Source: a virus
Taxonomy: Duplodnaviria > Heunggongvirae > Uroviricota > Caudoviricetes
Virus record (IMG/VR): IMGVR_UViG_3300033156_001279
Coordinates: 13,069 to 77,068 of that record
Strand: one strand, 5' to 3'
Length of the DNA: 64,000 bases
The notes below the pieces were generated by a model. It ran no database searches and had not been told where the DNA came from. It saw only the letters and a list, made by a program, of their open reading frames with translations. Positions 18,462 to 35,496 of the stretch are shown here, piece after piece (the first letter of the stretch is position 1; each line of letters begins with the position of its first letter). The position numbers and the translations under genes were made by a program.

Positions 18462-18478
18462 AACTCTTTAAATCTCAA

Positions 18479-19531: not shown

Positions 19532-20162
19532 TGTTCGCTATGTTTTTCCAACCTGTTATTTTCTTTAAAGTCTTACTTTCAAAATGATGCACATAACTAT
19601 CTAAAACTTCTTTAGGAGAATATCCAGAACAAGTAAGACGCTTAATATAGTCTATATCCCCTCGAGCTAGTTTAAATTTCTCATCAAAATAACCAATAAT
19701 CCTAAATGCTTTTCTTTTAATAGCAAAACAAAATAGAGGAATTCCTTTGTGTTCTCGTTCAGTATTTTTTGGAAAATTCTTAGGAAGCTTCTTTCTAGTA
19801 AAACTTGGGTAAACTAATAACGAATTAGATTTTTTAAGTTCTTTAATTAAATTATCAATGGCTAGAGGTGCAAAAATAATATCATTATTTATAACTACTA
19901 TTAGTTCTGAATCAGAAGCTTTAAGTCCTTGGTTTATTGAAGTATAAACCCAATGATTCACCTTATTTTTTATTTGTAACAGCTCAATTTCATTGGAGTA
20001 ACAGAAATTATAGACCCATTCCAGTGTTTGATCAACAGAAGCATTATCTACTTGTATCAAACGAAATTCTAATTTAGTATTGGTTTTTAGACTTCTAAGA
20101 CATTGTTTTGTAAAATCAATCTCATCTTTCGTTAAAATAACTATATCTATCTTCTCAATCAT
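19488..20162 (-). CDS. glycosyltransferase family 2
   Basis: IVILTKDEIDFTKQCLRSLKTN...VDNASVDQT, the GT2 N-terminal signature. Confidence 0.5.
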   Translation of the reverse strand: MIEKIDIVILTKDEIDFTKQCLRSLKTNTKLEFRLIQVDNASVDQTLEWVYNFCYSNEIELLQIKNKVNHWVYTSINQGLKASDSELIVVINNDIIFAPLAIDNLIKELKKSNSLLVYPSFTRKKLPKNFPKNTEREHKGIPLFCFAIKRKAFRIIGYFDEKFKLARGDIDYIKRLTCSGYSPKEVLDSYVHHFESKTLKKITGWKNIANSDKQYYYGRRVRKS

Positions 20163-21306: not shown

Positions 21307-22045
21307 ATCTAGAAATTACAATTCCTGCTGCCTTGTTAGCAAGCTCCATCATTTTTCTAGGATTCCTTATTCCATTTAAAAGACAAAAAATCAGAATCGA
21401 CATTACGGTATCACCTGCACCTGTAACATCAATGACTTCTTTGACATCTGCTGGAACATTTTCAACAAACTTTCCATTCTCATAATAATCAATTCCTTTC
21501 TCAGCCCGAGTAATAAATGCTTGAGGAAAATCAGGATTTTTAGCTTCAGCAAATTCAAACTGATTAATCTTAAGAATTTCAGTTCCCTTAAAAACAGAGA
21601 GGTCTTTCTTTTTGGAGTCAACTATAGTTGCCTTACCGCCTTTTATGAATCCTTTATCATAATCTACAAAAGCAATAACTTCGAAATCACAAGGATTGGG
21701 TAATAGGATTCCTTCTAAATCTTCTGGTCGATAAACCGAAGGCTCATCTATCCTCAGTAATTGTTGACGTTGAGCTACTATTCTTGTCTTTCTCAGAGAT
21801 TGACACCTTTTGGGACTAATGATTTCGAAATCAAAATCTCTTGCAAATTCATCATCAATGATAGTAAATACAACTGGAATTATTCCCAACCCCATCAGAT
21901 TAATTGCTACATTAAGAGCTCCACCAGCTCTAATCTCTGTCCGCTCAACATCTATAATTGGAACAGGAGCTTCAGGAGAAATTCTTTCAACTTTTCCAAA
22001 ACGATATTCATCAATGAAACTATCACCGACGATAGCAACCTTCAT
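21263..22045 (-). CDS. PfkB-family sugar kinase (HldE kinase-domain-like, heptose-7-phosphate kinase type)
   Basis: DVTGAGDTVMS (the PfkB DTxGAGD motif). N-terminal MKVAIVGDSFIDEY...GGALNVA. Confidence 0.6.
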   Translation of the reverse strand: MKVAIVGDSFIDEYRFGKVERISPEAPVPIIDVERTEIRAGGALNVAINLMGLGIIPVVFTIIDDEFARDFDFEIISPKRCQSLRKTRIVAQRQQLLRIDEPSVYRPEDLEGILLPNPCDFEVIAFVDYDKGFIKGGKATIVDSKKKDLSVFKGTEILKINQFEFAEAKNPDFPQAFITRAEKGIDYYENGKFVENVPADVKEVIDVTGAGDTVMSILIFCLLNGIRNPRKMMELANKAAGIVISRFGTSAISLDELFDN

Positions 22046-22046
22046 C

Positions 22047-23030
22047 TCAGCCTCCTTTCTGAAATTGGAAGCTTCTCCTTTTCAAAGAGCTATTCTTAAT
22101 TTGTCGGATTAAATTAGTTGTTGAAAAACCTTTCAAAAGAGGAATTATTACTACTTTACCCCCCGACTTTCTTACAAAATCAGCACCAACTACTGTTTTC
22201 AAAGTATAATCACCTCCCTTAACTAGTATATCAGGTTTGATATTCTCAATCAAATTCAAGGGACTATCTTCATCAAAAATCTCAACTCTATCTACAAAAC
22301 TAATCGCTTCTAAAAGTTCTTTCCGCAATTTTTCCCCAATGATTGGCTTTCTTTTCCACCTCTTTGCTGAATCATCAGAATTAATTCCGACAATTAATTT
22401 ATCTCCAAGTTTCCTAGCTTTTCTCAGGAGATGCAAATGACCCGAATGTAATAAATCAAATACTCCATTGGTAAATACAACACTCTTTTTTCTGAATAAT
22501 GCGCTATAAATATCTTCCCTGATTCCAGATTCTGTTTCAGGATAACCAGACTTAATAAGTTTGAAACCTCTAACTTGAAAGAATAAGTCTAAACTCCGCT
22601 CTGTAAAATAATGTAAATGCTCTCCAGTCTGATATTTGAGATGTTTCCAACCATCCAAATTCTTTCCGAATGGTAAAATGGGAACGGTAACAAAAACATA
22701 ATCAGTCATTTGGAATAAGCTATCAAGTACTAAAAAATCAGGAATATGCTCCAAGACATCACAAAGAAAAATCAGATCATAATGACTATGTCTGATTCCC
22801 GTATACTGAATTGGAAAATCTCCAATATCATAAGTATCAACCACTGTACCTTTAGGCTTAAAATCTTTTAGCAGATTCAAACCCGCTCCATAATCAAGAA
22901 CTGTTTTGGGTTTTATTTCTTCAACAAAATTCCAACGCAGTTCATTAATTACTTTTGCCGTTTCCATATTCAATTTTTTCATATATTCCCAATATTGTTT
23001 TCCATATGGGAAGGAATCTCTTTTAGACAT
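22047..23030 (-). CDS. bifunctional methyltransferase-like / cytidylyltransferase-like nucleotidyltransferase (HldE adenylyltransferase-domain-like)
   Basis: C-terminal VVFTNGVFDLLHSGHLHLLRKARKLGDKLIVGINSDDS carries the HxGH motif of the cytidylyltransferase family (RfaE domain II / TagD). N-terminal SAM-MTase-like VLDYGAGLNLL...LIFLCDVLEHI. The start is placed at the ATG at 23028-23030, which is preceded by an AAAGGAGG Shine-Dalgarno. The ORF track's TTG-extended ORF runs to 23081. Confidence 0.6.
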   Translation of the reverse strand: MSKRDSFPYGKQYWEYMKKLNMETAKVINELRWNFVEEIKPKTVLDYGAGLNLLKDFKPKGTVVDTYDIGDFPIQYTGIRHSHYDLIFLCDVLEHIPDFLVLDSLFQMTDYVFVTVPILPFGKNLDGWKHLKYQTGEHLHYFTERSLDLFFQVRGFKLIKSGYPETESGIREDIYSALFRKKSVVFTNGVFDLLHSGHLHLLRKARKLGDKLIVGINSDDSAKRWKRKPIIGEKLRKELLEAISFVDRVEIFDEDSPLNLIENIKPDILVKGGDYTLKTVVGADFVRKSGGKVVIIPLLKGFSTTNLIRQIKNSSLKRRSFQFQKGG

Positions 23031-23058
23031 GTTGACCTCCTTTCTTGTTAGGAAACTT

Positions 23059-23157
23059 GGAGAGACGTAATTTCCCAACAACCTTAAGGTCTCTCCAAAC
23101 CATTAGATATCATAAACTCCTTTTAGTGAAGTCTCCTTCTAATGGTTAACTTAAGGA
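23059..23157 (-). terminator. two adjacent hairpins downstream of the major capsid gene (candidate terminator/attenuator)
   Basis: Inverted repeats GGAGAGAC...GTCTCTCC (23059-23096) and AACCATTAGA...TCTAATGGTT (23098-23157), between the MCP stop and the glycan-island start. Confidence 0.3.
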
Positions 23158-23176: not shown

Positions 23177-24121
23177 TTAGAGCGACCAATCGGGATTACA
23201 ACCGTAAGCATACTGCCACATTCCAAAGCCAACATTTCCCCTGAAATCAACTCCGAAATAGAGTTTCTTTTTCAAGAAACTATCAGTATTATCCTTAGTC
23301 AGACTATCAAAGGTAATATCTCGTCTGATTTGAAGGATAATAGGTTTAACAATTCCAGTGGTATCTATAACAGCCCAGAAATTAGTATCTACATATGGAG
23401 TAACATAAAGATCCAGAGCTCCTTTCAGAACGTTCGTTGCAAGTTTGGTTCCTTCAACCTCTGTTGGGTAGTATTGGCTATTCAGAATTTCTCGAGCAGT
23501 AAATTGCTGACTTGGATTAACTATCAAGAGATTAGGTCTAACTTCAAGTGGATTTCCCTTATCATCCACCCATTGCATCATTTCTTCAATTACAGTTTGA
23601 AGATTATCAGCAGTCAATTCCAGGTTATCTCCATTTCGTTGAGTTCCAGATTCACCTTCTTCATGAGAATCTGAAAAGAAAGCCTGACCATCATAACAGG
23701 AAATATCTTTGCCTTCAAGAATTGTTCCATCTTCTCCTGTGGTGTTATCCCCTTGGTTTAATAAGGTATATACCATTTTGCCCCAGAACCTTCCAGCTTT
23801 ATTTGCCAAATCTCTTACTCTGATATTAATCTGGCCATACTGTTCATCTTCCAATGCATCTCTATCCACAGAAATAGAACTTTCCCAAGATCGATTCCTA
23901 ATGGAGAAATGATGTTCTAAAAGACCCTGTGGAACTCTTTCGTCTACCCATTCATGTAAGTCAGGTACCGCACCCAACCAAGGATAGGTTTCTTCACTCT
24001 TGGTTGAGTTTATTCTAGTAGCAATTCTTTCCCATTCAGCTTCATGCTTTCTAAACTCTTTCATGAATGTCTTTCTCATTCCAGCCTCTAATAGTTTTGG
24101 AATATCAGATTTTACTAACAT
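23177..24121 (-). CDS. major capsid protein
   Basis: 314 aa, immediately downstream of the protease/scaffold and a small head protein. Size and composition fit HK97-fold or Mu gpT-like capsid proteins. Confidence 0.5.
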   Translation of the reverse strand: MLVKSDIPKLLEAGMRKTFMKEFRKHEAEWERIATRINSTKSEETYPWLGAVPDLHEWVDERVPQGLLEHHFSIRNRSWESSISVDRDALEDEQYGQINIRVRDLANKAGRFWGKMVYTLLNQGDNTTGEDGTILEGKDISCYDGQAFFSDSHEEGESGTQRNGDNLELTADNLQTVIEEMMQWVDDKGNPLEVRPNLLIVNPSQQFTAREILNSQYYPTEVEGTKLATNVLKGALDLYVTPYVDTNFWAVIDTTGIVKPIILQIRRDITFDSLTKDNTDSFLKKKLYFGVDFRGNVGFGMWQYAYGCNPDWSL

Positions 24122-24123
24122 AA

Positions 24124-24624
24124 TTATGCACTCTCAGAAGAGCTTGAAAATGAACTGCTTGAGAAACTAGAACTAGAAGAACTCCAAGATTTTTGAGCAT
24201 ATTCACCTATTCCACCTTGAATATCAACTTTCACAGTAGAACTATCAATGAATTTCACTACTTGTCCAACCACAAGATCATTTGTGACATCTCCTACTTC
24301 ACCAACAGTATTATCGTCTACCACAAAGACTTGATCTCCAACTACTCGTTGAGCAGCTCTAAATGCTGTAGCAAACTTGAATACTCCTCTTCTATGAACT
24401 CTGACACTTCTATCTCCACTCTTATCATTATCAGGTGCTTCAGATTTCTCTGCTGCAACCCCTACCACCACACTATTGGCGGCATCAGTTGCCGCTCTCA
24501 GATAACCATCAGCTCCAACCATAACAATTGCACCTTTGTAGATATCCTCATCTGCATAAATCTTATATCTAATCAAATCTCCCTCTTGTCGTTCAGCCTC
24601 ATAATCGTCTGTTAACGCAGCCAT
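24124..24624 (-). CDS. head protein (decoration-like) with C-terminal poly-Ser tail
   Basis: 166 aa ending SWSSSSSSFSSSSFSSSSESA. The same Ser-rich motif occurs in the 1-1972 fiber. Confidence 0.35.
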   Translation of the reverse strand: MAALTDDYEAERQEGDLIRYKIYADEDIYKGAIVMVGADGYLRAATDAANSVVVGVAAEKSEAPDNDKSGDRSVRVHRRGVFKFATAFRAAQRVVGDQVFVVDDNTVGEVGDVTNDLVVGQVVKFIDSSTVKVDIQGGIGEYAQKSWSSSSSSFSSSSFSSSSESA

Positions 24625-24664: not shown

Positions 24665-27109
24665 TTAGAAAGGAGTTGATTCACCTTCCTTTTTTTTCTC
24701 ATCTTGAACTTCTTTCCAAACTTCTTTTTGAATATCTTCATCCAATTCCATTGCTTCCATTACCTTCTTCCCATCCTCAGGAATTTCAGAAGTTTTTTCT
24801 CTCTCTTCTTTATCTTCATTAATTATACCTTCTTCTGATAAAGAAAAGATTGACTTTTTAGATTTCAGGAATTTTTCTAAAGCTTTACCAACCATTACTT
24901 TCTTTCCATCTTCCAATTCTATTTTGGAATCAGAACCAAGTAATGGAAGTAAAAGTTCTCTTTCTGTAGGAGTTACTTTTCCCATCCTGAGAAGAGCGTT
25001 ATATCTTTTCTCGGCTAAATCAACTTCTTTTTCTTCAGAATTCTCTTCAGTGGAAGTTTCTTCAGTTACAGATTCTTCAGATTCAGATTCCTCTTTTTCT
25101 TCTTCCTCGGTATCTTGACCAACTTTAGAAGACTCAGACTCTTCTTTCTCTGAAGTTTCTTCTGAAGTTTCCTCCGAAGTTTCCTCTGAAGTTTCATCTT
25201 CATTTAATTCCAATTTCTTCTCTATCCTTCTTATTTTCGAACTAATTTCCTCTTGGGTCAAGGGAGGTTCGGAATTCAGAATTGGAATAACCAATTTACC
25301 CTCAAAATTTTCTGAAAGCGGAACAAAGTTTTCCATTCCTTTGATATAAGGTTCGGTAACTAAGGCCGCATGAAATAAAGTCGGACCAATCCTTTCCCCT
25401 GTATCCTTTCTCATATAATCTTCAACAAAACTAGCTGAGATTCCATTAATCAAACCCTTTTTGATTCTTTCCGCAACTGCATCATCTTTCACTTCAATAA
25501 TTGCAGAAAGTTTGGTTCCATCTTTTGAAAGTTCCAAATCATTAACCTGACCTGCATTCTTCATTGGCTCGTCACCAACAGGATGTCCCAAAGGAACAGT
25601 AACATTATCAAGAACTCCTTTTTTAAAATTCTCATACAGCTTTCTTAGTGTCTCTTTTGAAACTTTCAAAATTCCATTTTTACTCGATTCATGAAACCAA
25701 GAACCAACTCTCAATATCTCCTTTTTAAATCTATTCCCTTCGCTAAGTTTGATTAATCCATTGTTATAAACTCGGTAAATCAAATCTTGATTTTCAGCCA
25801 ATTCTTTTTTAGGACTAGGATATGCTGAAGGATACTTTTCTTTTAGACTGATAATTTTCTCACGAATCTTTTTTAACTTGGTAGCAATCTTTTCATCGGC
25901 TTCTTTAATTATAGAATCAAGATCTCCTAAAATTGAATCAAGATTAGTCGTAGCCTTCCGAACTGGATAAGGATAACCATAAGGATAACGGTAAGGATAA
26001 CGGTAGGGATATTGATAAGGATATTGATAGGGATATTTAGAAGGATATTTTGGATATTTAACCGTTCTTTTGGCCTTCTCAGTTTTTCCGCTACAAATTT
26101 TGGCAGCTTCTTTCATTGATTTTCCAGCCTTCATCTCCTTTTTCATACAATCGGTATAAGCTGATTTTTCGAGTTTAGTTATTTTACCAGCTTTCTTAAC
26201 TTTCTTGCTACATATCTTTGCTGCTTCTTTAAATGGAGTTCCTTTCTTAAGCTCTTTTTTCATACAATCGGTGTAAGCGGATTTCTCTACATAAATTTTC
26301 TCAGTTAATTCAGTTTTTTCTTCTTCCTCATCGTCATCCTCTTCCTCATCTTCTTCATCTTCCTCATCCTTGTCTTCCTTATCATCCTCTTCCTTTTCAG
26401 TTTCTTCCTCTTTGTCCTCACCTTCTTCTTTATCCTCGACTTCTTCCGTATCCTCTTCAGACTCATCAGTTCCCTCTTCCTCAGTTTCCTCCTCTTCCTT
26501 AGTCCCTTCGGCCTCCGTTTCTTCAGTTTCTTCTTTATCATCTTCTAAACTTTCCTCTTCAGTTTCACTTAACTCTTCGAAATCTTCTTCTAAATTTTTG
26601 TTCATGGTTTTTTCAGCCATATCAATAGCTTTGGATACATACCATCGAATGGCTTTTGCTTCTGGATTTGCACCTTGCGGAACTAATGATACTTCCTCAA
26701 TATGCAAATCCTTAATTACTCTTAATTTCAAATCAGGAAATAACTCGACCTTTTCTCCATATTTTATCTCTCCTTTGACCGAGAGGCTATTTAGTTCTCC
26801 TGATTTGATTTTATCTATAATTTTTGGTTTATCTACTTCAGTCTTAATCCAAATTTTCCCTTTCCTGAAAACACAATCAAGAACTTTTCCTATTTCTTCT
26901 TTTGTATGGTTCAAACAGAATTTTCCATATTCTTTGAAATCCTTTATGCTTTTCCTTAAAGCTTTATCAGTAATAATATCATTCTGTAAATCAAAATCAT
27001 TCGCAACAGCAAATCCTTCAAGAATAAATCTTTCTTTTTTCTCTTTTTTCTCACTCAAAAAAAGTGGAAATTGAAATTCTATTTTTGGATAATATAATAA
27101 CTTGTTCAT
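24665..27109 (-). CDS. prohead protease (HK97 gp4/S78-like) fused to acidic repeat-rich scaffold region
   Basis: N-terminal FILEGFAVANDFDLQNDIITDKAL...LNHTKEEIGKV...LNSLSVKGEI and a second S78-like segment ...PLGHPVGDEP...GQVNDLELSKDGTKLSAIIEV...IKKGLINGISASF. Between them lie a poly-E/D tract, duplicated KSAYTDCMKKE.K.G..KEAAKICS modules, a YPYQYPYQYPYRYPYRYPYGYPYP repeat, and C-terminal ETSE x4. Confidence 0.5.
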   Translation of the reverse strand: MNKLLYYPKIEFQFPLFLSEKKEKKERFILEGFAVANDFDLQNDIITDKALRKSIKDFKEYGKFCLNHTKEEIGKVLDCVFRKGKIWIKTEVDKPKIIDKIKSGELNSLSVKGEIKYGEKVELFPDLKLRVIKDLHIEEVSLVPQGANPEAKAIRWYVSKAIDMAEKTMNKNLEEDFEELSETEEESLEDDKEETEETEAEGTKEEEETEEEGTDESEEDTEEVEDKEEGEDKEEETEKEEDDKEDKDEEDEEDEEEDDDEEEEKTELTEKIYVEKSAYTDCMKKELKKGTPFKEAAKICSKKVKKAGKITKLEKSAYTDCMKKEMKAGKSMKEAAKICSGKTEKAKRTVKYPKYPSKYPYQYPYQYPYRYPYRYPYGYPYPVRKATTNLDSILGDLDSIIKEADEKIATKLKKIREKIISLKEKYPSAYPSPKKELAENQDLIYRVYNNGLIKLSEGNRFKKEILRVGSWFHESSKNGILKVSKETLRKLYENFKKGVLDNVTVPLGHPVGDEPMKNAGQVNDLELSKDGTKLSAIIEVKDDAVAERIKKGLINGISASFVEDYMRKDTGERIGPTLFHAALVTEPYIKGMENFVPLSENFEGKLVIPILNSEPPLTQEEISSKIRRIEKKLELNEDETSEETSEETSEETSEKEESESSKVGQDTEEEEKEESESEESVTEETSTEENSEEKEVDLAEKRYNALLRMGKVTPTERELLLPLLGSDSKIELEDGKKVMVGKALEKFLKSKKSIFSLSEEGIINEDKEEREKTSEIPEDGKKVMEAMELDEDIQKEVWKEVQDEKKKEGESTPF

Positions 27110-27121: not shown

Positions 27122-30100
27122 TTATTTGGGCTTTGGAAGTTCGCTTTTCTTTAAAACCCAAAACTTGCTGGCATCTTCCCTTTCTAAAATCCACAGACCT
27201 TTTAATTTTTTGCCTTTAAATTCAAATTTTTTAAAAGAATCAGAATCTTCATAAACGACTGCTTTCCCTTTATCTATTATCTTAATATATGAACTCGTTG
27301 CCTTAGTTGGGTTCGCTTCTTCTATTCCAGGTGGTAATTTTGCCAATTCCTTTTCTGACATTTTTGCTCTTTCATTTGCAGGCGGAAGATACTGAGAGAC
27401 TTCCATCCATTCTTTATATTTACAAGGTTTCCATATCGCTGTAATCTCTTTATTTTTTAAAGGATTTTGACTAAGAACAAAATGCATCAAGCCTTCCCTT
27501 TCAGGAAAATTGAATCTCAAATCCCAATGTTCTTTTGAGATTCCCGCTCTAATAACCCTTTGTCCGCGCCACCAATGCCACTGCAAAACAAAGGAAACTG
27601 TTTTTGCCTTTTCAATCTGTAAAAGTTCAACCATAATCAACTTCATATCGTTGGGTCTTTTTCTCAACCAAGTTATAATATCCTTCAGCCATTCTTTCTT
27701 AAGTGGATGAAGCTCTTTGAACTCTTGTAGTGCTTTCTCAACCCGTTTAACTTTTTCCGGGTAAGGAGTTCGAAGCCAAAAAGTTAAAATCTGTTGGGAC
27801 AAAACATATCGATAAGCAGCCCTTGCCCAACTTGCACCTGGGTTCAATTTTTTTTCAACAAGTTCTTTTCCAAGTTTTTCAACTAACTTATCTCTAACTT
27901 CTAACCTTTTCTTTTTATCTTCAAATTTCCAATACTGAAATTCTTTGGAAATTTTCTTTTTTATCTTTTCTGGTAGAGCAGAAATATTCTTTGGAGGAAT
28001 CCATTTTTTCTCAACAGCCACATCTGAAATAACATAAGGTGTTTCGTCTAATGGCTTAACAAGGAACCATGATGCTTCTTCTCTAAATTTTGTTTCTCTT
28101 GCTGGAGGTATAACTTCCTGCTTCTCTATCTTTCCTCGAAATTCAGCAGGTCTTAATTGCCTGAAAAACCACCTGCCCTTGAGTTTGCCACCAGAAAAGA
28201 AGTATTCATGGAAATAAGACTTTTGAGTTCCGCATTCGCAAAAACCCCTATCAATGATATGAAAAACTCCAGGGTATTCTTTCGTTGCCCCCACTTCTCC
28301 TTTTGGTGTTATACCTTCGACATTCAGCCACTCCACTGGCTCCCTTGATTTCCTCATCGCTGCTATTTCAGCATATTTTTCTTTGAATCCAGGCTTAATC
28401 CCAGGCCTTAATTTGGGAATACCTTTCTTCCAATCTATTTTCCAGATATCTTGGGCATCATATTTTTTCGCTTCAGCTATTGAAAGAACTGGCTCTTTGA
28501 TTTTTCCCTTGATTTGGTCAGCGATAGTCCAACCAATAAGAAATTCATTATACTTAAACCTCAAATCGGAATGGCAACTTTTACCCCTATAGTGATGCTG
28601 AACTACATACTTTTTCTTTCCTTCTGGCTTGGGATATTCCATATAAGGGTCAGCTAGTTTTTCAACCTTAAGCTTGGTCTTCATATATTTTTCTGCTCGC
28701 TTCCAGCATTCATACCAAGAGCCAGTCTTTTTCTTTGGTTTTATATCAATTCCAATACTATGCAAAACATCAACTATCTTAGCAAAATATCTCAAAATAT
28801 CTTCCATTGTCCAATCACCCCATTTTTTTCCTGCTTTTAATCTTGGAAAGCCAGCATTGCCCAAATATCTCAGATCTGCTATCAATTCTCTTTTTCTTTT
28901 CTTTGGATTTTTCAAATCTTCATCCATTCCTTCACTTCTAAATTGTTCCAAATGAAGTTTTTCTATTTCAGATAGATAAATAATCTTTCCTTCTTTCGTA
29001 ATCTCCTTCTCCTGTAAACAATAATTCTTCTTTGCTCGCTCAATCGTTTCTCTAACCGTATCTGCTTTCCTATCTACCTTACGCATTACTCTCGGAGCCC
29101 AAACCGAAATTCTCCAAGTATCATCTGTCAAATCATGTTCAGCATTCAGAGTTTCACCCTCAATCTCCAAGACATCTCCTTTATTAGCTTTTAAAGAGGT
29201 AGAGAAAGTTCTACCAGAACGGTGATAGAAAACATTGCCAAGTTTTTCTGTCTTCATTTTGTATTTTCCAGGTTCTAAACCGAAATAATAGTTATATACT
29301 TCTTTTACTTTGGTCTCTTTGATTTCAAGAACCTTGCCATAAACTGCTGTTGAATTATGAAATTTTACCATCCCACTCCGTATACCTTTGAGATTAAATT
29401 TGAAATCTCTTGTCTTACAAACATTGCCTTCTGAACCTGGTAGTCGTCTTAAAAATTCTGTATGTTTTCTTAGTTCCCTTCTGTTTTTTGAAAGAAGATA
29501 AGGGGCAAAATTCAATTTCATTTTTGTATCTGGAATTTTCCATGTTCTTTGCTTAAAAGGCAAAGACTCAAGTAACTTTAATCTTTTTTCAAAAGACTCA
29601 TTATGGATATCAATTTTAAAATAAGGCATATCATAAACATTAGCAACCACATGAGAATCATCAGGCATTCCTTTTTGATGCATATAACCAGCAATTACTT
29701 CTCTTGGTTTATGGTCATTGTCTTCCCACCATTCTAATTCGGCCATCAATACACAATCTTCTTTAGTTAATCTTTTCACTTCTTCAATCAAAGTAGGCAA
29801 TCTGTTAGTTATGATTTCACCATCTTCCGAAAAGATTTTTATTTCATTTCCTTTTTTATGCAACTCACAATTAAATCCATCATACTTCTTAGTTGAATAA
29901 AAAGGATATTTCCCTATTCCCTCCATTACTTCAGTAAATAAAACAATCGTTTGTCTTTTTTCTGGATAATACCCTCTTGTGGGTTTTAACGGCAAGAAAA
30001 ATCTGAACAATTTAATTTTATCTTCTCTTGCTGAAGTCTCAGCATCCTTGACCGCTGAAGCAACTCGGGGTTTTTCTCTTAGTTCTTTTTCAATTTCAGA

Positions 30101-31828
30101 AAGTTTCAGCATTCTATCTTTGCTTCTTAACATCACCAGATTATAAAGAGGAATAGCATTTGTGAAAGGAGTTGAAAATTTATCATAAACAAAATGCAAT
30201 CTTCTTCTAATCCACCAAGGAAGACTTCTAGCTATTCTAAATTCAATTATTCTTCTCATATCAAAACTCAACCATTCAGGTAAAAGAATATCCAAATCTC
30301 CTCTTGTTGCACCTCGGTTCACTATTCCTCCCGTAAGATAAACAAGCGGTCTTTGAATGGTAAAATTTTTAAAATAAGGCAATACCTCTTTCAAAACTAA
30401 GGTCTTTCCCATTCTCTTACCAGAAGTATAAATCGGCGCTGAATTCTCACTTAAATTGATAACCGTGTTATCTGTTGCTATGATGGCAGGAATTTTTGTT
30501 AACTCTTTAATTTTAGTTAACAAAACATCATCTCCATAACTCAGCGATTCTTTACCTAAATGAGTAATTATAATCTTTTTAACATTATCAACTGTATACC
30601 AATTCTTTAACTGATTGGCGATGCTACTATGACCATATGGTTCACCTGCTTTCCCTTTTCTTCTCGCCAAAGTTCTGGTAAGAGAAGAACCATCAATAAT
30701 TGCTAAATCCAATTTCTTAACATACTTTTCCTTATCTCCAGAATGCCAACCTAGGATATCTGTTGCTTGAAGAACTTTCTTATCACCCATTTGAATTATG
30801 AAAACATGCATTTTTGCCCGAATAGAATGAAGAACGGGAATTGGGGTTATTTTGAAGGGACCTAGATTAAAAGTCTTATAAGATTCATATTTTGCTCTGG
30901 TATCAATGTTGAAATCTTTATAAAGATTTGGAATTTCTTTTGCAGTTTCTTTGGAAACTATGACAGACATATCTTTCAAACCTAAAAGATGATCTGGGTG
31001 GGAGTGGCTAACCAAACAATAGTCTGGTTTAATTTCACTTAGGTTACCCTGATTTATCTCCCCGTAATCCACTAAAAGTCTTTTGCCTTTATACTCATAG
31101 AGAATCGCAGTATGGAACCTATGTCCAGGACCTTCTTCTTCAATTAAACCTTTTGTCCCGTAAAATGAAACTTTGTAACCTTCTTTGCTAAATCTTTCTT
31201 CAAATTTTTTTGATTCTTTATCTAAATTATCATCCATTACCTCATGTTTGAGTTTTCTTTTTAATATCTCATTCTTAATTAAAATGTGATAGTTGATACA
31301 TTCTTCTTTCGAAGCTGCTGATTGTTGCCATATTTTATGCAGTTTCTTATGCATATCCAAAAGTTCTTCATCGCTGAATTTAGCTGGATCACCAAAGTTC
31401 ATACTTTTGAAAGTTACACCTTCTAACCAAACCTGAGCACCTTTTGGTCTGATGATTTCTTTAGGAGGATCAAATTTCGAGATGAGTTCGATTGGGTAAT
31501 AGTACAAAGTCTTCTTCCCTTTCCACCACTTTCTGTATTCAGAATCTGAAATCTTATGAAATTTTCTCAGTTTCTTAAATTCTTTTAAATCAATCTTTCT
31601 GCCTTCTTTTAGTTCGATGATTCCTAAAGCTTTGTCTTCCTCAATCAAATACACTGGAATTCCAATATATTTCTTAAATAATCTTGAACTGACTATTGCT
31701 TTTTTCTTTCTTTGCCAAATCAAAGTACCATGGGGTTTCACCAAAATTTTTCCAGGCAACATAATTGTTCTTCCAGGCTGTATCAATTCAGGAATGTCTG
31801 ATGGAACTAACATTTTTGCAGAAATCAA
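27122..31828 (-). CDS. LigD-like multidomain DNA-end processing enzyme: MBL-fold + possible Pol-beta-type NTase + ATP-dependent ligase + two LigD 3'-phosphoesterase domains
   Basis: HSHPDH (HxHxDH) at aa 275-280. GG-x9-DLD at ~aa 500-513. Ligase motifs KYDG (648-651), DGE (669-671), EGNVCK (800-805), KVLEIKETK (~832-840). LigD PE signatures VVQHHY..HSDLRF..EGITPKGEVG..IIDRG..GGKLKGRWFF (aa ~1073-1225) and VLQWHW..HWDLRF..GKKLKGLWIL (~1413-1552). Confidence 0.6.
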   Translation of the reverse strand: MISAKMLVPSDIPELIQPGRTIMLPGKILVKPHGTLIWQRKKKAIVSSRLFKKYIGIPVYLIEEDKALGIIELKEGRKIDLKEFKKLRKFHKISDSEYRKWWKGKKTLYYYPIELISKFDPPKEIIRPKGAQVWLEGVTFKSMNFGDPAKFSDEELLDMHKKLHKIWQQSAASKEECINYHILIKNEILKRKLKHEVMDDNLDKESKKFEERFSKEGYKVSFYGTKGLIEEEGPGHRFHTAILYEYKGKRLLVDYGEINQGNLSEIKPDYCLVSHSHPDHLLGLKDMSVIVSKETAKEIPNLYKDFNIDTRAKYESYKTFNLGPFKITPIPVLHSIRAKMHVFIIQMGDKKVLQATDILGWHSGDKEKYVKKLDLAIIDGSSLTRTLARRKGKAGEPYGHSSIANQLKNWYTVDNVKKIIITHLGKESLSYGDDVLLTKIKELTKIPAIIATDNTVINLSENSAPIYTSGKRMGKTLVLKEVLPYFKNFTIQRPLVYLTGGIVNRGATRGDLDILLPEWLSFDMRRIIEFRIARSLPWWIRRRLHFVYDKFSTPFTNAIPLYNLVMLRSKDRMLKLSEIEKELREKPRVASAVKDAETSAREDKIKLFRFFLPLKPTRGYYPEKRQTIVLFTEVMEGIGKYPFYSTKKYDGFNCELHKKGNEIKIFSEDGEIITNRLPTLIEEVKRLTKEDCVLMAELEWWEDNDHKPREVIAGYMHQKGMPDDSHVVANVYDMPYFKIDIHNESFEKRLKLLESLPFKQRTWKIPDTKMKLNFAPYLLSKNRRELRKHTEFLRRLPGSEGNVCKTRDFKFNLKGIRSGMVKFHNSTAVYGKVLEIKETKVKEVYNYYFGLEPGKYKMKTEKLGNVFYHRSGRTFSTSLKANKGDVLEIEGETLNAEHDLTDDTWRISVWAPRVMRKVDRKADTVRETIERAKKNYCLQEKEITKEGKIIYLSEIEKLHLEQFRSEGMDEDLKNPKKRKRELIADLRYLGNAGFPRLKAGKKWGDWTMEDILRYFAKIVDVLHSIGIDIKPKKKTGSWYECWKRAEKYMKTKLKVEKLADPYMEYPKPEGKKKYVVQHHYRGKSCHSDLRFKYNEFLIGWTIADQIKGKIKEPVLSIAEAKKYDAQDIWKIDWKKGIPKLRPGIKPGFKEKYAEIAAMRKSREPVEWLNVEGITPKGEVGATKEYPGVFHIIDRGFCECGTQKSYFHEYFFSGGKLKGRWFFRQLRPAEFRGKIEKQEVIPPARETKFREEASWFLVKPLDETPYVISDVAVEKKWIPPKNISALPEKIKKKISKEFQYWKFEDKKKRLEVRDKLVEKLGKELVEKKLNPGASWARAAYRYVLSQQILTFWLRTPYPEKVKRVEKALQEFKELHPLKKEWLKDIITWLRKRPNDMKLIMVELLQIEKAKTVSFVLQWHWWRGQRVIRAGISKEHWDLRFNFPEREGLMHFVLSQNPLKNKEITAIWKPCKYKEWMEVSQYLPPANERAKMSEKELAKLPPGIEEANPTKATSSYIKIIDKGKAVVYEDSDSFKKFEFKGKKLKGLWILEREDASKFWVLKKSELPKPK

Positions 31829-31942: not shown

Positions 31943-33415
31943 TTAGTTCCGCATCTGGGACAAATTTTTTTTCTTTTGGCCATCAGCATATTTCTGACCC
32001 AACTTAAAACATTTAATTTCCAAGTCGGGACCAGGTTTTAAATTTAATATACTATCTTTCAAAGACTGAGGAGTCTTTGGAGCATTTATTTTAAGCTCAT
32101 CACTTCTTCTTCGCTTTCCTTCTTCAAAAGATTTTAACAAATTCTTATTCCTTTTCTCTGTCTCTTCCTCTTTCTTATGAATCCACTTGAGTTTTAAATT
32201 CCTTGCAGTCTCATCAATTACTTCGTCCACAAAACCATCAGGCAATCGTTTAGAGTCTGCTATCTTAGAAAAGACCGTTTCCAAGAATTGAGCAGTCTGT
32301 CCAGTTATCTTCTCAAATTCAATTCTTGGATATGCTTGACTGCCAAAGTTCCAATCTATAAGGGGAGCCACAGCATAAGTATTCAAGGTAGATTCCATCT
32401 GATTCATAATAGATTGAATAGACAAGGTGGCATATTGAGAGCTTTGGGTTCCTTTCCCATATGGATAAGCATATTTAATCTGATCTAAGACCTGCACCAA
32501 AGCTGACTTACTCATTTCACTATTATGATGTTCAATTAAAGGAAGAGGATCAAAACCTTTTTCACCACCTCTCTGAATTTCAAGTTCAATTCCTGGAGGC
32601 AAAGTCACTCTTGAATTAACTCCAAGAGTATCCACCACTTCTTCTGCTCTCTCTCTTTCTTGAGGAGTGGTAGTCTGTCCAATTTTTAATATTTTCAAAC
32701 CCAATGTGTCCAACTCGGCCTTTTTATGAGTTAAATAATATAACTTATGTTTTTTGTCATAATGATACCAGGCCGTCTTTAATATAGATTCGCCATAAAG
32801 CCAATGTTTTTCTTTTTGAAAGGTAAATAAAAGACACTTTTCAGGAGGAAAGTCTATAGAGACGGTTTCTCCCCCAAATGTTGCATCCTGATGTGCTCCA
32901 GCAAAACCGCCATGCTTATCAGGTTTTAAGGTAATAGTTTGAGCATCCCTCGGAGCTAATTTTTTCCAACCCACTTTACCTTTGTACTTACCATCGGGAA
33001 TTATTCTGGCTACTTTCTCATAAAGTCTAAATCCCTCAAAAATTGCTCTGGTCATATCAGCCACAATAAAAGGAAGTGGGGTAGTCATCCCACCTTGACC
33101 TGGAGGATTCATAAAAACCATTTCTATAAAGTCTCTTTCTCCCTTATCTCCTTCTGCTGGAAGAATATGAATAGGAGTTGAAATTATAGGTAAAGTCAGA
33201 AGTCTAACTATAGCCTGTATTTCACCATCATTGCTCTGCATCTGAATATAATCTTCGGGAGTCAATTCATCTGGATTTTCTTCTGTTTCATACGAGCTTA
33301 AGACTCCTTCACGAGCCAAACCGAACTCTTTCATAAACTCGCTGATAGTCAAAACCTTCCTTTCTTTCTTACTCCTTTTTTTTCTCTTAAAAAAATTAGG
33401 AATTTTTATATTCAC
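31943..33415 (-). CDS. portal protein (putative)
   Basis: 490 aa, upstream (in transcription order) of the protease/scaffold and MCP. Acidic, with size and position typical of portals. No diagnostic motif was verified. Confidence 0.4.
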   Translation of the reverse strand: MNIKIPNFFKRKKRSKKERKVLTISEFMKEFGLAREGVLSSYETEENPDELTPEDYIQMQSNDGEIQAIVRLLTLPIISTPIHILPAEGDKGERDFIEMVFMNPPGQGGMTTPLPFIVADMTRAIFEGFRLYEKVARIIPDGKYKGKVGWKKLAPRDAQTITLKPDKHGGFAGAHQDATFGGETVSIDFPPEKCLLFTFQKEKHWLYGESILKTAWYHYDKKHKLYYLTHKKAELDTLGLKILKIGQTTTPQERERAEEVVDTLGVNSRVTLPPGIELEIQRGGEKGFDPLPLIEHHNSEMSKSALVQVLDQIKYAYPYGKGTQSSQYATLSIQSIMNQMESTLNTYAVAPLIDWNFGSQAYPRIEFEKITGQTAQFLETVFSKIADSKRLPDGFVDEVIDETARNLKLKWIHKKEEETEKRNKNLLKSFEEGKRRRSDELKINAPKTPQSLKDSILNLKPGPDLEIKCFKLGQKYADGQKKKNLSQMRN

Positions 33416-33461: not shown

Positions 33462-34100
33462 TTAATTCTTGGTCATCTGATTAATCTCACCACCTGAGAA
33501 CTCCGCAATCCACAAGTATCTCCCGTCTGTTGTAATTCCGCATGGATGCGAAATCGTTGCTGTAACATCTATCATTTTAATAACATTACCCTGCATGTCC
33601 ATTTGACAAATCTTTTTGTTTGAGTAATCTGTCCACCACAAATATTTCCCGTCTGTTGTAATATCCATTGGATAGGTAGTAATCGCTGAAACATCTATTG
33701 ATTTTATGACATTGCCATTTCTGTCTAACTTATGAATTGCATCAGTAGAGCTTTCAGTTATCCACAAGTATTTTCCGTCAAACGTAATTCCCCGGTCATA
33801 TGCTACACTGCCAGAGGGAATAAAGGAACGGATTAAATTACCCTGCTTATCTGATTGTATGATGCCTACTCCAGGGCCAATCCACCAAAGATATTTCTTA
33901 TCAAAAGCTGTGATTCCTCGTGGGCTTGCAGTTATTCCTGAAATATCTATTGTTTTTATCAGATTTCCCTGCTTGTCCAACTGATAGACATTATCATTGT
34001 CGTCACCTGTTACCCATAAATACTTTCCGTCTGTTGTGATACCTCGAAGAACACCATCTATTGCAGAAATATTAAGAGTTTTAATAATTGAAGCTGCCAT
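33462..34100 (-). CDS. 5-bladed beta-propeller-like repeat protein
   Basis: Five ~42-aa repeats (RGITTDGKYLWVT....DKQGNLIK.IDIS.IT..P) tile the whole 212 aa. Confidence 0.45.
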   Translation of the reverse strand: MAASIIKTLNISAIDGVLRGITTDGKYLWVTGDDNDNVYQLDKQGNLIKTIDISGITASPRGITAFDKKYLWWIGPGVGIIQSDKQGNLIRSFIPSGSVAYDRGITFDGKYLWITESSTDAIHKLDRNGNVIKSIDVSAITTYPMDITTDGKYLWWTDYSNKKICQMDMQGNVIKMIDVTATISHPCGITTDGRYLWIAEFSGGEINQMTKN

Positions 34101-34103
34101 TTT

Positions 34104-34490
34104 CTATCGATAGAGCTCTATATAAGCTGAAACGGTAAAAAAGGTTCCCCCATCAGTTCCAGCACTGGTAATCTTCAACCTAAGGTCTCTGGCAAAACAA
34201 GGTCCTTTTAACACTTCCTTCAAATCACCTTGATCCAGGGTATATCTTAAATCTCCCCAAAAATCATTTTGAAGATCAAACCAAGTATCTCCCCCGTCAG
34301 CAGAACCTTGAATTGTAAAAACTAAAGTTTCATCAGTATAAGAACCAGTGGTTGAAATATCCAAATATAGTGCAAATTCCGAGAAAGTATAAGAATTAAT
34401 CTTCTTTGAATATTGAGTTTCTGCACCCTTCTTAAAGACTTGGTCGGAAAATAGAGTCTTTACTTTTGATCTTTTGGTTAAATAATCCAT
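34104..34490 (-). CDS. hypothetical protein (128 aa)
   Basis: ORF in the late operon. Called on context only. Confidence 0.3.
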   Translation of the reverse strand: MDYLTKRSKVKTLFSDQVFKKGAETQYSKKINSYTFSEFALYLDISTTGSYTDETLVFTIQGSADGGDTWFDLQNDFWGDLRYTLDQGDLKEVLKGPCFARDLRLKITSAGTDGGTFFTVSAYIELYR

Positions 34491-34536
34491 ATGCTTAAAA
34501 AGAAGATGTTATCTTGCTTTAGTTATCTAGAACCGA

Positions 34537-35496
34537 TTATTTTCTAGTTAAAACTAAATGAATAACTCTATCGGAGAGTTCGACTCTCTCTCCAGTATAA
34601 TTCTCATTTTCAAGTGCTATCAGCCTCCAGTCTTTGCTTTTAGAAATAACTTTTTCCTGGAAATCAGACTGAAGAAGAATTTTGACGAATTCTTTGCCTC
34701 TCTCTTCTTTAAATTCAAATGGCAGATGTTCTTTCAATTTAGAAATTTTCTCTCCTTCCTTCTCTATCACTTTTTCTCTCATAATTTCCCAAGATTCAGG
34801 CAAATCAAAGACTTCTAAACCTGGTACCCCCTCTAAATCCAAAAGAGCCATGCCAACTTGATTCTCAAATCTGGGTATTTGGTTCAGAATAGATTTAATC
34901 TTTTCTGAGAAAGTCTTGAGATTCCCTTCTAAATCATCCGAACCAGCAAAATTAGTTTCCTCAATTATAGGAATCTCTCCTGCAGTTGTGGACAAGTCAT
35001 ATAACCTTCCCGTGAAATTTTGAGAAGTAGAACTAACCGCATTCCAAATTGTTCTTTGCTCCACATTCCTCATTTTAAAATTGGTATGAGACAAATAAGA
35101 ATCAAAATTGGAAGTAGCTATTCCCGAGGAAGTCATAGTAGATCCGGTATAAATTCCTTTAGAGGCATGAACGCAACGCACATCTATTCCAACTTTCTCT
35201 CCTGGCATAATCAAATAACTCCTAACAGCTATTCTCTCTTGAGTATCACCAGAAAAAATCTCACTCATTCTGATGTAAACTGGTTTTTTCTCGTTATTCT
35301 CCACTTCTACTTTGTTAATTTTGCCAGTATCCGTTATCTTAACATTTTTAGCCTCAGATAAAAGAAGATAATTCCTCCTTTTTCGAGTCTTTCTTAAAAT
35401 AGGAAGAATAGCCACTATCGAATCCTTGTTATATCTCCAACTTTTGCCGAAGGAGAATCCATCCTTCTCTTCGGCGATGCATTGACAAAAGTTCAT
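34537..35496 (-). CDS. hypothetical protein (319 aa), first gene of the leftward operon
   Basis: ORF downstream of the candidate late promoter at 35547-35576. Confidence 0.3.
   Translation of the reverse strand: MNFCQCIAEEKDGFSFGKSWRYNKDSIVAILPILRKTRKRRNYLLLSEAKNVKITDTGKINKVEVENNEKKPVYIRMSEIFSGDTQERIAVRSYLIMPGEKVGIDVRCVHASKGIYTGSTMTSSGIATSNFDSYLSHTNFKMRNVEQRTIWNAVSSTSQNFTGRLYDLSTTAGEIPIIEETNFAGSDDLEGNLKTFSEKIKSILNQIPRFENQVGMALLDLEGVPGLEVFDLPESWEIMREKVIEKEGEKISKLKEHLPFEFKEERGKEFVKILLQSDFQEKVISKSKDWRLIALENENYTGERVELSDRVIHLVLTRK

Follow-up and report, generated by a model that had tools for sequence, protein, structure and literature searches.

Why would a tailed virus keep what looks like a set of end-repair enzymes among its head genes? 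This question is raised by a giant ORF (27122..31828, minus strand; 1568 aa when read from a TTG) in the window, by which we mean the whole 64,000-nt stretch analysed (positions 13,069 to 77,068 of IMG/VR virus record IMGVR_UViG_3300033156_001279). An initial annotation divided the product into five parts, namely a metallo-beta-lactamase (MBL) fold, a possible Pol-beta-type nucleotidyltransferase, an ATP-dependent ligase and two LigD-type 3′-phosphoesterase (PE) domains, and proposed that the protein is packaged in the virion to heal and seal DNA ends. Four of these modules (MBL, ligase, PE1 and PE2) are confirmed here; the nucleotidyltransferase is likely but unproven. The combination of a ligase, tandem LigD-fold PE domains and an MBL domain is real, as judged by profile and structure matches. 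The protein contains at least six modules, and computation shows their order to be a probable ASCH domain, MBL phosphodiesterase, putative Pol-beta-type nucleotidyltransferase, Lig1-type ligase, PE1 and PE2, with catalytic residues that are strongly conserved across a large family.

An uninterrupted giant gene in the head module

The giant ORF has no internal stops, and its neighbours place it among head genes. Directly upstream lies a Mu-type portal gene (31943..33415, minus strand; PF06074, E 3.5e-30; PHROG 113). Only 12 nt downstream begins a gene for an 814-aa prohead serine protease/scaffold protein (24665..27109, minus strand), which is S78/XkdF-like and matches PHROG head-maturation-protease families. 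Its N-terminus scores above the Pfam thresholds of both Peptidase_S78_2 (26.1 bits versus 24) and Peptidase_S78 (25.6 versus 21); the protease occupies aa ~20–155 and is followed by an acidic linker and, last, a scaffold-like C-terminal part. A decoration/cement gene (24124–24624, minus strand) and a Mu gpT-like major capsid gene (23177–24121, minus strand) complete the module. Read from these matches, the order portal, giant gene, protease/scaffold, decoration and major capsid is that of a head-morphogenesis operon. Both the head-module location claimed for the ORF and its description as a single reading frame between the portal and prohead-protease genes are thereby borne out. The label "polyprotein" given to the product at the outset implies a processing that is hypothetical.

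A JGI protein, P0001, is identical to the giant protein but begins at Met6 (ATG 31813) and is 1563 aa long. We therefore prefer this ATG to the TTG as the probable start of the giant protein. An artefactual ORF is excluded by the identical protein and by full-length proteins of 68–82% identity on independent contigs.

ASCH, HEL and MBL modules

Scans with Pfam and NCBIfam gave no match for five segments of the protein, the ASCH-like, HEL, mNT (the candidate nucleotidyltransferase), LNK1 and LNK2 segments, the last two being helical linkers. The first of the five, a probable ASCH (PUA-like) domain at aa ~20–140 (31409..31771, minus strand), had been overlooked by the initial annotation. Its nearest ASCH structure is one annotated as such from Zymomonas mobilis, which we take to be a single-strand RNase, and the single match to the ASCH-like profile in a word-indexed search is a 126-aa protein. 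The adjoining HEL module (aa ~145–222; 31163..31396, minus strand) is helical in the model and accompanies the ASCH domain in relatives.

The next domain, at aa ~225–470 (30419..31156, minus strand), is an MBL-fold, binuclear-metal phosphodiesterase of the RNase Z/ElaC/PhnP/YhfI/Apyc1 branch. The earlier assignment of an MBL fold with the motif HSHPDH at aa 275–280 is upheld by the HxHxDH signature, the downstream His/Asp ligands, a Pfam score above threshold and the fold itself. Its further likening to Artemis/SNM1 does not hold. There is no beta-CASP insert in the domain, and this absence, together with the closest structural neighbours, rules out an Artemis, SNM1 or CPSF identity. Those neighbours are enzymes of tRNA 3′ processing and cyclic-phosphate metabolism, with ElaC, YhfI and PhnP all ranking above Apyc1. 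The domain differs from characterised members of the branch in that it falls under every equivalog threshold and forms part of a multidomain viral protein.

A Lig1-like ligase preceded by a candidate nucleotidyltransferase

Between the MBL domain and the ligase lies a putative minimal nucleotidyltransferase of the Pol-beta superfamily (mNT; aa ~472–585; 30074..30415, minus strand). The signature GG-x9-DLD at aa 499–513 (G499-G500 and D511-L-D513) fits the pattern hG[GS]-x9-13-Dh[DE]h. Among 62 family members, G500 is conserved in 100%, D511 in 95% and D513 in 100% (as D or E). All 12 profile matches in the PDB are to MNT, TdT or Pol beta and are aligned on the motif, with weak E-values of 0.2–0.44; over the PDB profile searches together the range is 0.2–0.7, to the same kinds of enzyme. 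The position of a candidate third carboxylate is Asn in the window protein and lies in a YDL motif in most relatives, and pLDDT in the AlphaFold model is below 50 over the region. The signature reported earlier is thus present and conserved, while homology is indicated by weak PDB matches; the G-x10-DxD module is probably a Pol-beta-type nucleotidyltransferase.

The adenylation domain of the ATP-dependent ligase follows at aa ~600–830 (29339..30031, minus strand), and was correctly recognised from the outset. PF01068 matches with E 7.5e-13 (49.1 bits versus a threshold of 26.2), and across 83 members K648, D650, G651, E697, D733, E800, G801, K805 and K822 each reach 83% conservation or more, so that all the adenylation motifs (I, III, IIIa, IV and V) are represented. 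The motifs assigned by the initial annotation need partial revision. Motif I, with its lysine K648, and motif IV stand; motif III is AELE at E697, the "DGE" at 668–670 being Ia-like, and motif V reads K822-x-H rather than K-x-K. Against the PDB, the family profile matches archaeal and human Lig1 at E 7e-18 and Mycobacterium tuberculosis LigD at 3e-9, and its matches are DNA ligases (Lig1, Lig3, Lig4 and LigD) rather than members of the Rnl families. By profile comparison, then, the domain is closer to archaeal/eukaryotic Lig1 than to LigD, contrary to the LigD-like character first attributed to it.

A region of ~100 aa at the position expected for the OB domain (aa ~831–930; 29039..29338, minus strand) is conserved family-wide and is a candidate OB domain. 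The PDB profile alignment ends at the adenylation domain, before this region, and neither Pfam nor PDB profile searches over aa ~831–930 returned an OB-domain match.

Two divergent phosphoesterase domains

The C-terminal part contains the helical linker LNK1 (aa ~955–1055; 28664..28966, minus strand), PE1 (aa ~1062–1262; 28043..28645, minus strand), a LigD-fold 3′-phosphoesterase domain with an insert of ~60 aa, the helical linker LNK2 (aa ~1263–1404; 27617..28042, minus strand), present in 144 of 150 family representatives, and PE2, a second LigD-fold phosphoesterase domain (aa ~1405–1568; 27125..27616, minus strand). A Dam methyltransferase domain (PF02086) is inserted near LNK1 in two relatives, before the linker in P0005 and after it in P0004.

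Three kinds of comparison agree that two LigD-type PE domains lie in tandem, as had been claimed. The best seven Foldseek matches in the PDB are all LigD PE structures (E 4e-6 to 4e-4; target-normalised TM up to 0.83). PE structures rank first in the profile searches with each domain, and the PE2 profile matches 3p43 at 1e-4 and 3p4h at 2e-4. Aligned with each other by hhalign, PE1 and PE2 give a probability of 98% (E 1e-13). The profile-HMM check suggested at the outset gave a divided result: LigD_N (PF13298) scores 19.5–21.2 bits on the giant protein, under its Pfam threshold of 31.1, even though PE structures are the top profile matches. TIGR02777 scores 27–29 bits against a cut-off of 144. 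On these scores, the PE domains are a divergent branch of the LigD 3′-phosphoesterase superfamily and not an equivalog of it.

The Mn triad and the associated Arg of PE1 are nearly invariant in 151 domain copies (H1079, H1086 and D1088 in 100%; R1090 in 99%). Together with K648 of ligase motif I, these residues had been singled out as a point on which the annotation could fail, and all were found conserved. The corresponding PE2 residues (H1418, H1434, D1436 and R1438) are intact in the giant protein, but only about 42–55% of family members keep the triad, and conservation over all four positions ranges from 42 to 70%. Inteins occur within PE1 of P0003 (in the C-terminal half) and of P0004 (beside the catalytic His); inteins usually occupy conserved sites in important proteins. 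PE1 also has E1163 at the position of LigD His84 and W1167 at that of Tyr88; W1167 is 95% conserved, as is the family-specific K1160. In Pseudomonas LigD, His84 and Tyr88 contact the phosphate and are essential, and LigD PE naturally acts on 3′-ribonucleotides and 3′-phosphates (PMC8656161). Lacking equivalents of these two residues, PE1 may have a chemistry that differs from that of LigD.

A large family linked to the prohead protease

The giant protein is not unique but belongs to a large undescribed family. A profile search with PE1 returned 1,164 cluster representatives at 50% identity, nearly all of them unnamed metagenomic proteins; one member in GenBank (AJP62006.1) is labelled "ATP-dependent DNA ligase". 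Our literature search found no account of the family or of its domain architecture, in line with the initial impression that the architecture had not been described before.

The family core, mNT-ligase-PE1-LNK2-PE2, is held together as a unit. The ligase and PE halves are fused in 17 proteins and encoded by two adjacent, co-directional genes in 23; in the split form, a gene for MBL-ASCH-HEL-mNT-LIG is followed by one for PE1-LNK2-PE2. On sequence grounds, the two halves are functionally linked.

A further association is with the S78 protease. Among the 57 distinct PE proteins of the fetched loci, 32 are linked to it, 9 by fusion and 23 by a protease gene no more than 100 nt downstream, and in 39 of the 150 representatives the C-terminus matches Peptidase_S78_2, with Pfam E-values of 1e-19 to 1e-33. 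This is the same domain that forms the N-terminus of the protease/scaffold protein in the window. P0108 and P0157 are among the relatives with a naturally fused protease, and in P0012 ASCH-HEL is joined straight to a protease/scaffold. The gene upstream in relatives encodes a portal (PF04860 or PF06074) or a MuF protein, with separate MuF genes ahead of the family gene in two loci (L016 and L037). Distant portals are out of reach of phmmer from the window portal, and the upstream genes were typed by Pfam; the related loci themselves were retrieved with a narrower alignment, a full-protein scan of genome contigs having given no relative.

The contigs that carry these loci come from IMG/VR, are viral, and were assigned by binning to archaeal MAGs; those of the closest relatives fall in Hodarchaeales MAGs. 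The source virus is therefore probably an archaeal tailed virus, the host call being by MAG binning, and the term phage used for it earlier should probably be dropped.

Possible roles of the giant protein

We favour, with about as much belief as doubt, the reading that the protein is a multi-enzyme that heals and seals nucleic-acid ends, presumably a passenger of the capsid that is delivered along with the DNA. Cleaning of 3′ ends, by removal of 3′-phosphates, cyclic phosphates or terminal ribonucleotides, would fall to the PE domains and perhaps also to the MBL domain. The putative nucleotidyltransferase may add one nucleotide, and the ligase would then close the 3′-OH/5′-phosphate nick or break. 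This logic of end healing and end sealing would be that of LigD, realised with partly different parts. Taken into the procapsid and delivered together with the DNA, the giant protein could act ahead of any viral gene expression; it might seal the incoming genome or close it into a circle, or mend nicks and breaks that host nucleases have made. The S78 protease acts inside procapsids, and persistent adjacency or fusion to it, along with the portal/MuF neighbourhood, makes incorporation into the procapsid most likely. The packaged end-healing machine proposed initially thus gains independent support from the protease adjacency and fusions; we infer its packaging, substrate and role. More tentatively, and with somewhat less than an even chance, many archaeal tailed viruses, including probable Asgard (Hodarchaeales) ones, may inject a procapsid-loaded, Ku-independent, NHEJ-like end-repair machine that was assembled independently of LigD. 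Such a machine would be loaded by associating with the prohead protease or being fused to it, and would seal, circularise or rescue DNA from host nucleases, in the service of counter-defence or genome establishment.

It is also conceivable, if rather unlikely, that the protein is a late intracellular enzyme that is never packaged, and that it repairs replicated viral DNA for the terminase motor or matures genome ends, its place in the head operon reflecting timing only. Biology of the T4 type makes a ligase and end-cleaning activities plausible needs in DNA maturation. The Pfam scan found neither a MuF domain (PF04233) nor a known capsid-targeting signal in the giant protein, and the protease in the window is a gene of its own, unfused to the giant ORF. 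However, it is difficult to see why a cytoplasmic enzyme should be fused time and again to the prohead protease (9 of 57 loci, 39 of 150 representatives) or be encoded so close to it in 23 more loci, and the terminase gene lies ~17 kb from the giant ORF in the window. Alternatively, the substrate could be RNA: where defence ribonucleases have cut tRNAs or other RNAs, of the host or of the virus, the protein would restore them. The kinship of the MBL domain with tRNA 3′-processing and cyclic-phosphate enzymes would suit such a role, as would an ASCH domain closest to a presumed RNase, the native use of 3′-ribonucleotides and 3′-phosphates by LigD PE (PMC8656161), and an mNT that resembles minimal nucleotidyltransferases and would here be CCA-adding-like. 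We nevertheless consider RNA repair improbable. Canonical healing of 5′-OH ends needs a polynucleotide kinase, and the giant protein has no Walker A motif or 5′-kinase module, so that 5′-OH ends could not be sealed by it; the ligase matches DNA ligases rather than Rnl families; and the Dam DNA methyltransferase inserts of two homologues point to DNA.

We think it very doubtful that the protein serves anti-defence in the "polyvalent" manner, with modules that work independently, the MBL domain, for example, degrading cyclic-nucleotide immune signals as Apyc1 does while others counter nucleases. Apyc1 is outscored by ElaC, YhfI and PhnP, the mNT-ligase-PE1-LNK2-PE2 core stays together as befits a concerted pathway, and the hallmark polyvalent domains are all absent.

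If the packaged, end-healing reading is true, nucleic-acid end healing and ligation would form a new functional class among the head-carried enzymes of tailed viruses, and archaeal viruses, with few examples in the defining study, would join the bearers of large "polyvalent"-type head proteins. The recurrent S78 prohead-protease fusion would be a concrete candidate route for loading capsid cargo. The work also defines a large and essentially unannotated family, which holds a divergent LigD-phosphoesterase branch with two LigD-essential residues replaced; this branch is a clear target for biochemical work and perhaps for molecular-biology tools. A possible Asgard host link, which rests on binning, adds to the interest.

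Comparison with known systems

The closest functional parallel is bacterial LigD (POL-LIG-PE) and the split archaeal NHEJ system of Methanocella (Ku, Lig, Pol and PE). These likewise combine an ATP-dependent ligase with a LigD-fold, Mn-triad phosphoesterase, and 3′-end healing and sealing reside in one polypeptide or in adjacent genes, as here. In LigD the polymerase is of the AEP type, whereas the giant protein has a small Pol-beta-like module in that place; the PE domain is duplicated and C-terminal, with its ~60-aa insert and with Glu and Trp for His84 and Tyr88; and the ligase is Lig1-like, in a viral protein encoded in a head module. Pfam and NCBIfam scans found no AEP/POL polymerase match in the giant protein, and phmmer, run with an approximate M. 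tuberculosis Ku query of low sensitivity, found no Ku-like ORF across the window and 64 related loci. With neither an AEP polymerase domain nor Ku, the giant protein is not a LigD orthologue. Orthology is likewise ruled out by the NCBIfam LigD models, all of which score far under their cut-offs, and by the Lig1-like ligase.

A true family member is already on record in ANMV-1, a putative ANME-1 archaeal virus (KP703175.1). Its AJP62006.1 protein has the arrangement mNT-ligase-OB-position-PE1-LNK2-PE2, but at 866 aa it is without the ASCH, HEL and MBL modules, and its PE domains are unannotated in the record. The gene downstream of it encodes not a protease but a Cys-rich protein with a MuF-like C-terminal motif.

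Polyvalent and MuF-fused effectors of tailed phages are, like the giant protein, very large multidomain enzymes whose genes adjoin the portal/MuF genes of terminase-portal viruses, and they are predicted, as it is, to travel in the head and to be injected along with the DNA. The study that described polyvalent proteins lists no ATP-dependent DNA ligase, LigD PE or MBL modules, and found these proteins scarce in archaea, nearly all of those above 1000 aa being bacterial (Iyer et al. 2017, PMC5512222). The giant protein differs from polyvalent proteins in having no MuF domain.

Finally, capsid-internal enzymes delivered with the genome include the internal proteins and Alt of T4, DarB of P1 and the virion RNA polymerase of N4; to our knowledge, none of these is an end-repair or ligase enzyme. 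In T4, the prohead protease processes head-internal cargo. The giant-protein family is tied to its protease by gene fusion and adjacency, not by a demonstrated targeting peptide. The concept that it would share with the T4, P1 and N4 cargo is that of enzymes made in advance, stored in the head and active on entry.

RESULTS

An intact reading frame in the head module

The giant ORF (27122–31828, minus strand) contains no stops and encodes 1568 aa when counted from a TTG codon, the numbering used here. An identical protein in the JGI collection, P0001, begins at Met6, and the conserved N-terminus of homologues, MLVPSDIPE, agrees with this position. Hence, the true start is probably the ATG at 31813, giving a product of 1563 aa. 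Full-length relatives of 68–82% identity are present on independent contigs, which excludes an assembly artefact and supports the single long frame described in the initial annotation.

The placement of this ORF between portal and prohead protease/scaffold genes, part of the same annotation, is likewise borne out. A Mu-type portal gene (31943–33415, minus strand; PF06074, E 3.5e-30) lies 114 nt upstream, and an 814-aa prohead protease/scaffold gene (24665–27109, minus strand) starts 12 nt past the end of the ORF. The first ~155 residues of the 814-aa protein score above the Pfam thresholds for Peptidase_S78_2 and Peptidase_S78, and the remainder matches head-maturation-protease/scaffold PHROGs. 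A decoration gene and then a Mu gpT-like major capsid gene follow. Since tail tube, tape measure, Dit and large terminase genes are encoded elsewhere in the window, its source is evidently a tailed virus.

The large terminase gene (50917–52410, minus strand; PHROG 38, E 3e-21) is ~17 kb from the portal gene, past a strand switch near 36 kb, which is unusual for a head module. A second ORF with Mu gpT-like major-capsid-protein segments (55326–56258, plus strand; Pfam 2e-11, PHROG 371 7.5e-13) lies far outside the head module, facing the other way. Directly upstream of the portal gene are three ORFs (33462–35496, minus strand), encoding a Vgb-lyase-like beta-propeller protein (33462–34100, minus strand), a small product with a weak F5/8 type C match, and an ARPP-1 domain protein (34537–35496, minus strand; PF20208, E 5e-28). 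Sugar-nucleotide/modification enzyme genes lie inside the structural module, between capsid and tail genes (18479–23081 and 13495–15879, both minus strand). Besides a GDP-mannose 4,6-dehydratase/epimerase-like gene and a PfkB-like kinase, they include a fusion of a methyltransferase with a cytidylyltransferase-like part, a gene weakly matching glycosyltransferase-2 and a methyltransferase–ParB_N fusion. The first set is also conserved in the related locus L001, and a role for these genes in glycosylation of the virion or of DNA is possible. A pair of neighboring N6/N4 DNA methyltransferase genes occupies 48354–50250 (plus strand; PF01555, E 6e-47 and 5e-51). Finally, a 982-aa ORF (9575–12523, minus strand) holds a GC-rich island (GC 0.44, surroundings about 0.33) and weakly matches the YadA-head repeat; its product could be a fibre or adhesin that includes a foreign or repetitive stretch.

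Domain composition of the giant protein

Four of the five parts originally listed, namely the metallo-beta-lactamase (MBL), ligase and two phosphoesterase (PE) domains, are confirmed, the nucleotidyltransferase is likely only, and an ASCH-fold domain had been overlooked. The ASCH fold (aa ~20–140) yields a confident structure model (pLDDT about 90), and its family profile matches TTHA0113 over the full length (hhalign 86%), itself a Pfam ASCH protein; the Pfam ASCH model gives no direct match to this domain. A helical module, HEL (aa ~145–222), travels with ASCH in relatives. The MBL domain (aa ~225–470) exceeds the Pfam threshold for Lactamase_B_2, and the metal-ligand motifs, including the HSHPDH noted earlier, are all conserved (D254, H275-x-H277-x-D279-H280, H334, D357, H400, H423). 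It is a predicted phosphodiesterase of the RNase Z/PhnP type, and the comparison with Artemis is unsupported.

The putative minimal Pol-beta-type nucleotidyltransferase (mNT, aa ~472–585) carries the motif TGG-x9-DLD; of 62 family members, 100% conserve G500, 95% D511 and 100% D513. In two PDB profile searches, it matches solely Pol-beta-superfamily enzymes (MntA, another MNT, TdT and Pol beta), aligned exactly on this motif with weak E-values of 0.2–0.7. The structure model is too poor for use, and a candidate third carboxylate, within YDL in most relatives, is Asn in the giant protein. The proposed signature is present and conserved, and the nucleotidyltransferase assignment is likely.

The ligase adenylation domain (aa ~600–830; PF01068, 49 bits) was correctly recognized, down to the motif I lysine, K648 of KYDG. 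However, the DGE taken as motif III (668–670) belongs to a motif Ia-like SEDG, and the real motif III residue is E697. K648, E697, D733 (IIIa), S799-E800-G801...K805 (IV) and K822-x-H/K (V) are each retained by 83% or more of 83 members. Against the PDB, the ligase family profile gives E-values of 7e-18 to 1e-15 with Lig1-type ligases of archaea and human and a weaker 3e-9 with the Mycobacterium tuberculosis LigD ligase domain. The ~100 residues that follow, in the OB position (aa ~831–930), are conserved and give no Pfam or PDB profile match to an OB fold. The helical module LNK1 (aa ~955–1055) separates ligase from PE1; between these two domains, a Dam (D12) methyltransferase is inserted after LNK1 in homologue P0004 and before LNK1 in P0005.

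PE1 (aa ~1062–1262, with a ~60-aa insert) and PE2 (aa ~1405–1568), joined by the helical LNK2 (aa ~1263–1404), both have the LigD PE fold, in line with the tandem domains first proposed. Pfam LigD_N alone is below threshold (19.5–21 bits versus 31.1), and the assignment comes instead from PDB profiles and a structure model. Solved LigD PE structures rank first for PE1 (9e-5 and 3e-4) and PE2 (1e-4 and 2e-4), and the two domains match each other (hhalign probability 98%, E 1e-13). An AlphaFold model of aa 1050–1568 (pLDDT 73.5) retrieves LigD PE structures as its top seven PDB matches (E 4e-6 to 4e-4; target-normalised TM up to 0.83), later matches being noise. PE1 retains Gln-x-His...His-x-Asp-x-Arg; H1079, H1086 and D1088 never vary among 151 domain copies, and R1090 is kept in 99% of them, as the initial annotation would predict. 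His84 and Tyr88 of LigD touch a scissile phosphate mimic, and mutation of these residues inactivates the Pseudomonas enzyme (PMC8656161). In PE1 these positions are E1163 and W1167, alongside a family-specific K1160, and TIGR02777 scores 27–29 bits against a cut-off of 144. PE1 is therefore a divergent branch of the LigD phosphoesterase superfamily, not an equivalog. The PE2 triad is intact in the giant protein and retained in only about half of the family.

LAGLIDADG/Hint inteins interrupt five relatives (P0003, P0004, P0007, P0009, P0010). Inteins in relatives interrupt PE1, in P0004 directly beside the catalytic His. In L001, the Mu gpT-like capsid gene is broken up by a gene with a faint LAGLIDADG match (18015–18857). 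The close homologues P0004 and P0005 extend ~35 aa beyond PE2 as a Cys-rich tail (C-x6-C ... C-P), which may form a zinc ribbon and is missing from the window's giant protein.

Family, probable hosts and gene neighborhood

A PE1 profile scan of 1.84 billion cluster representatives returned 1,164 proteins at E <= 1e-3 (851 at E <= 1e-10), so by profile matching the giant protein is a member of a large family, not a singleton. Our own domain HMMs, applied to the best 150 of these 1,164, detected LNK2 in 144 and PE2 in 109. The ligase is present in 81 and mNT in 62; 39 end in an S78 protease domain, 32 have ASCH and 7 have MBL. A single chain combines all five enzymatic/binding modules in only 5 of these 150, whose median size is 1,046 aa.

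All ten family members sampled are unnamed metagenomic proteins. Among 50,697 GenBank phage records, the sole match is ANMV-1 (KP703175), in which an 866-aa product labelled 'ATP-dependent DNA ligase' shows the core architecture mNT-ligase-PE1-LNK2-PE2. The next gene in ANMV-1 (KP703175.1, 5868–9368) encodes an extremely cysteine-rich repeat protein of 1166 aa terminating in a MuF-like motif (...CDYCRD...PPYHEHCRC); the upstream gene, annotated 'MutT-like phage hydrolase', may be portal-like in appearance. At NCBI, the two closest relatives likewise bear the name 'ATP-dependent DNA ligase' and come from 'Candidatus Hodarchaeales archaeon' MAGs; IMG/VR lists the same contigs as viral (76.8 and 34 kb). 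In a GTDB scan, matches fell on eight contigs, two of them short and from bacterial MAGs and six from MAGs of archaea (Archaeoglobales, Methanosarcinales, Methanospirareceae (ANME-1), Thermoprotei, Geothermarchaeota, Methanobacteriota); the Archaeoglobales contig (24,094 bases) shares its size and match coordinates with one IMG/VR contig. MAG binning thus points to archaeal, possibly Asgard, hosts.

Our context survey (53 IMG/VR loci, the GTDB loci and L001) covered 57 distinct PE proteins. In nine, the reading frame continues into a homologue of the 814-aa protein's N-terminal domain; a protease-domain gene lies <=100 nt downstream of 23, and further downstream in the same locus for 12. The fused tails are Peptidase_S78_2 (XkdF) by Pfam (E 1e-19 to 1e-33), and in P0012 ASCH-HEL is joined directly to a protease/scaffold protein. 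Upstream neighbors are either HK97-type portals (L014, L050, L059) or MuF-like proteins (L016, above the Pfam threshold; L037, just below). MBL-ASCH-HEL-mNT-ligase and PE1-LNK2-PE2 are encoded by two adjacent co-directional genes in 23 cases, and ligase and PE share one chain in 17. Such alternation between fused and split forms speaks for joint action of the two halves.

DISCUSSION

We propose that the PE domains, possibly with the MBL, would turn blocked 3' ends (3'-phosphate, cyclic phosphate or terminal ribonucleotides) into 3'-OH; the mNT may add a nucleotide, and the ligase would seal the end. Because the giant protein has no kinase module (no Walker A motif) and its ligase matches DNA ligases, DNA nicks or breaks bearing a 5'-phosphate are a more likely substrate than RNA. 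RNA or tRNA repair would suit the RNase Z-like MBL, the ASCH domain and the action of PE on ribonucleotides, but the missing kinase, the DNA-type ligase and the Dam inserts in homologues make this quite unlikely.

Prohead proteases work inside procapsids. Since the gene also occupies the portal/MuF slot, we consider it most parsimonious that the giant protein is built into the procapsid and exits with the DNA. At entry, it would seal or circularise the genome, or repair host-nuclease damage. It is also conceivable that the same enzymology acts inside the cell during DNA maturation, with head-operon placement serving timing only; the protease fusions speak against this, and we hold it to be unlikely. 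Least probable is a set of anti-defence modules acting independently, the MBL in the manner of Apyc1. Apyc1 is a good structural neighbor of the MBL, but ElaC and PhnP are closer, and the core modules are passed on together.

Our literature search found no paper on this architecture or family, in keeping with the initial annotation, and database records call members 'ATP-dependent DNA ligase' or leave them unnamed. The proposed logic of end healing and sealing resembles that of LigD. The giant protein nevertheless does not qualify as a LigD: Pfam and NCBIfam scans find no AEP polymerase domain, phmmer finds no Ku in the window or 64 related loci (with an approximate M. tuberculosis query of low sensitivity), His84/Tyr88 equivalents are not conserved in PE1, and LigD-model scores are sub-threshold. 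Polyvalent proteins and other capsid-delivered effectors would share the proposed delivery logic, but the giant protein has no MuF domain by Pfam, so membership is not supported. The survey by Iyer et al. lists no ligase, PE or MBL modules, and reports few polyvalent proteins in archaea, nearly all of those >1000 aa being from bacteria (PMC5512222). Of note against this background are the size of an unannotated family, its divergent PE chemistry, its protease fusions, and its archaeal and possibly Asgard setting.
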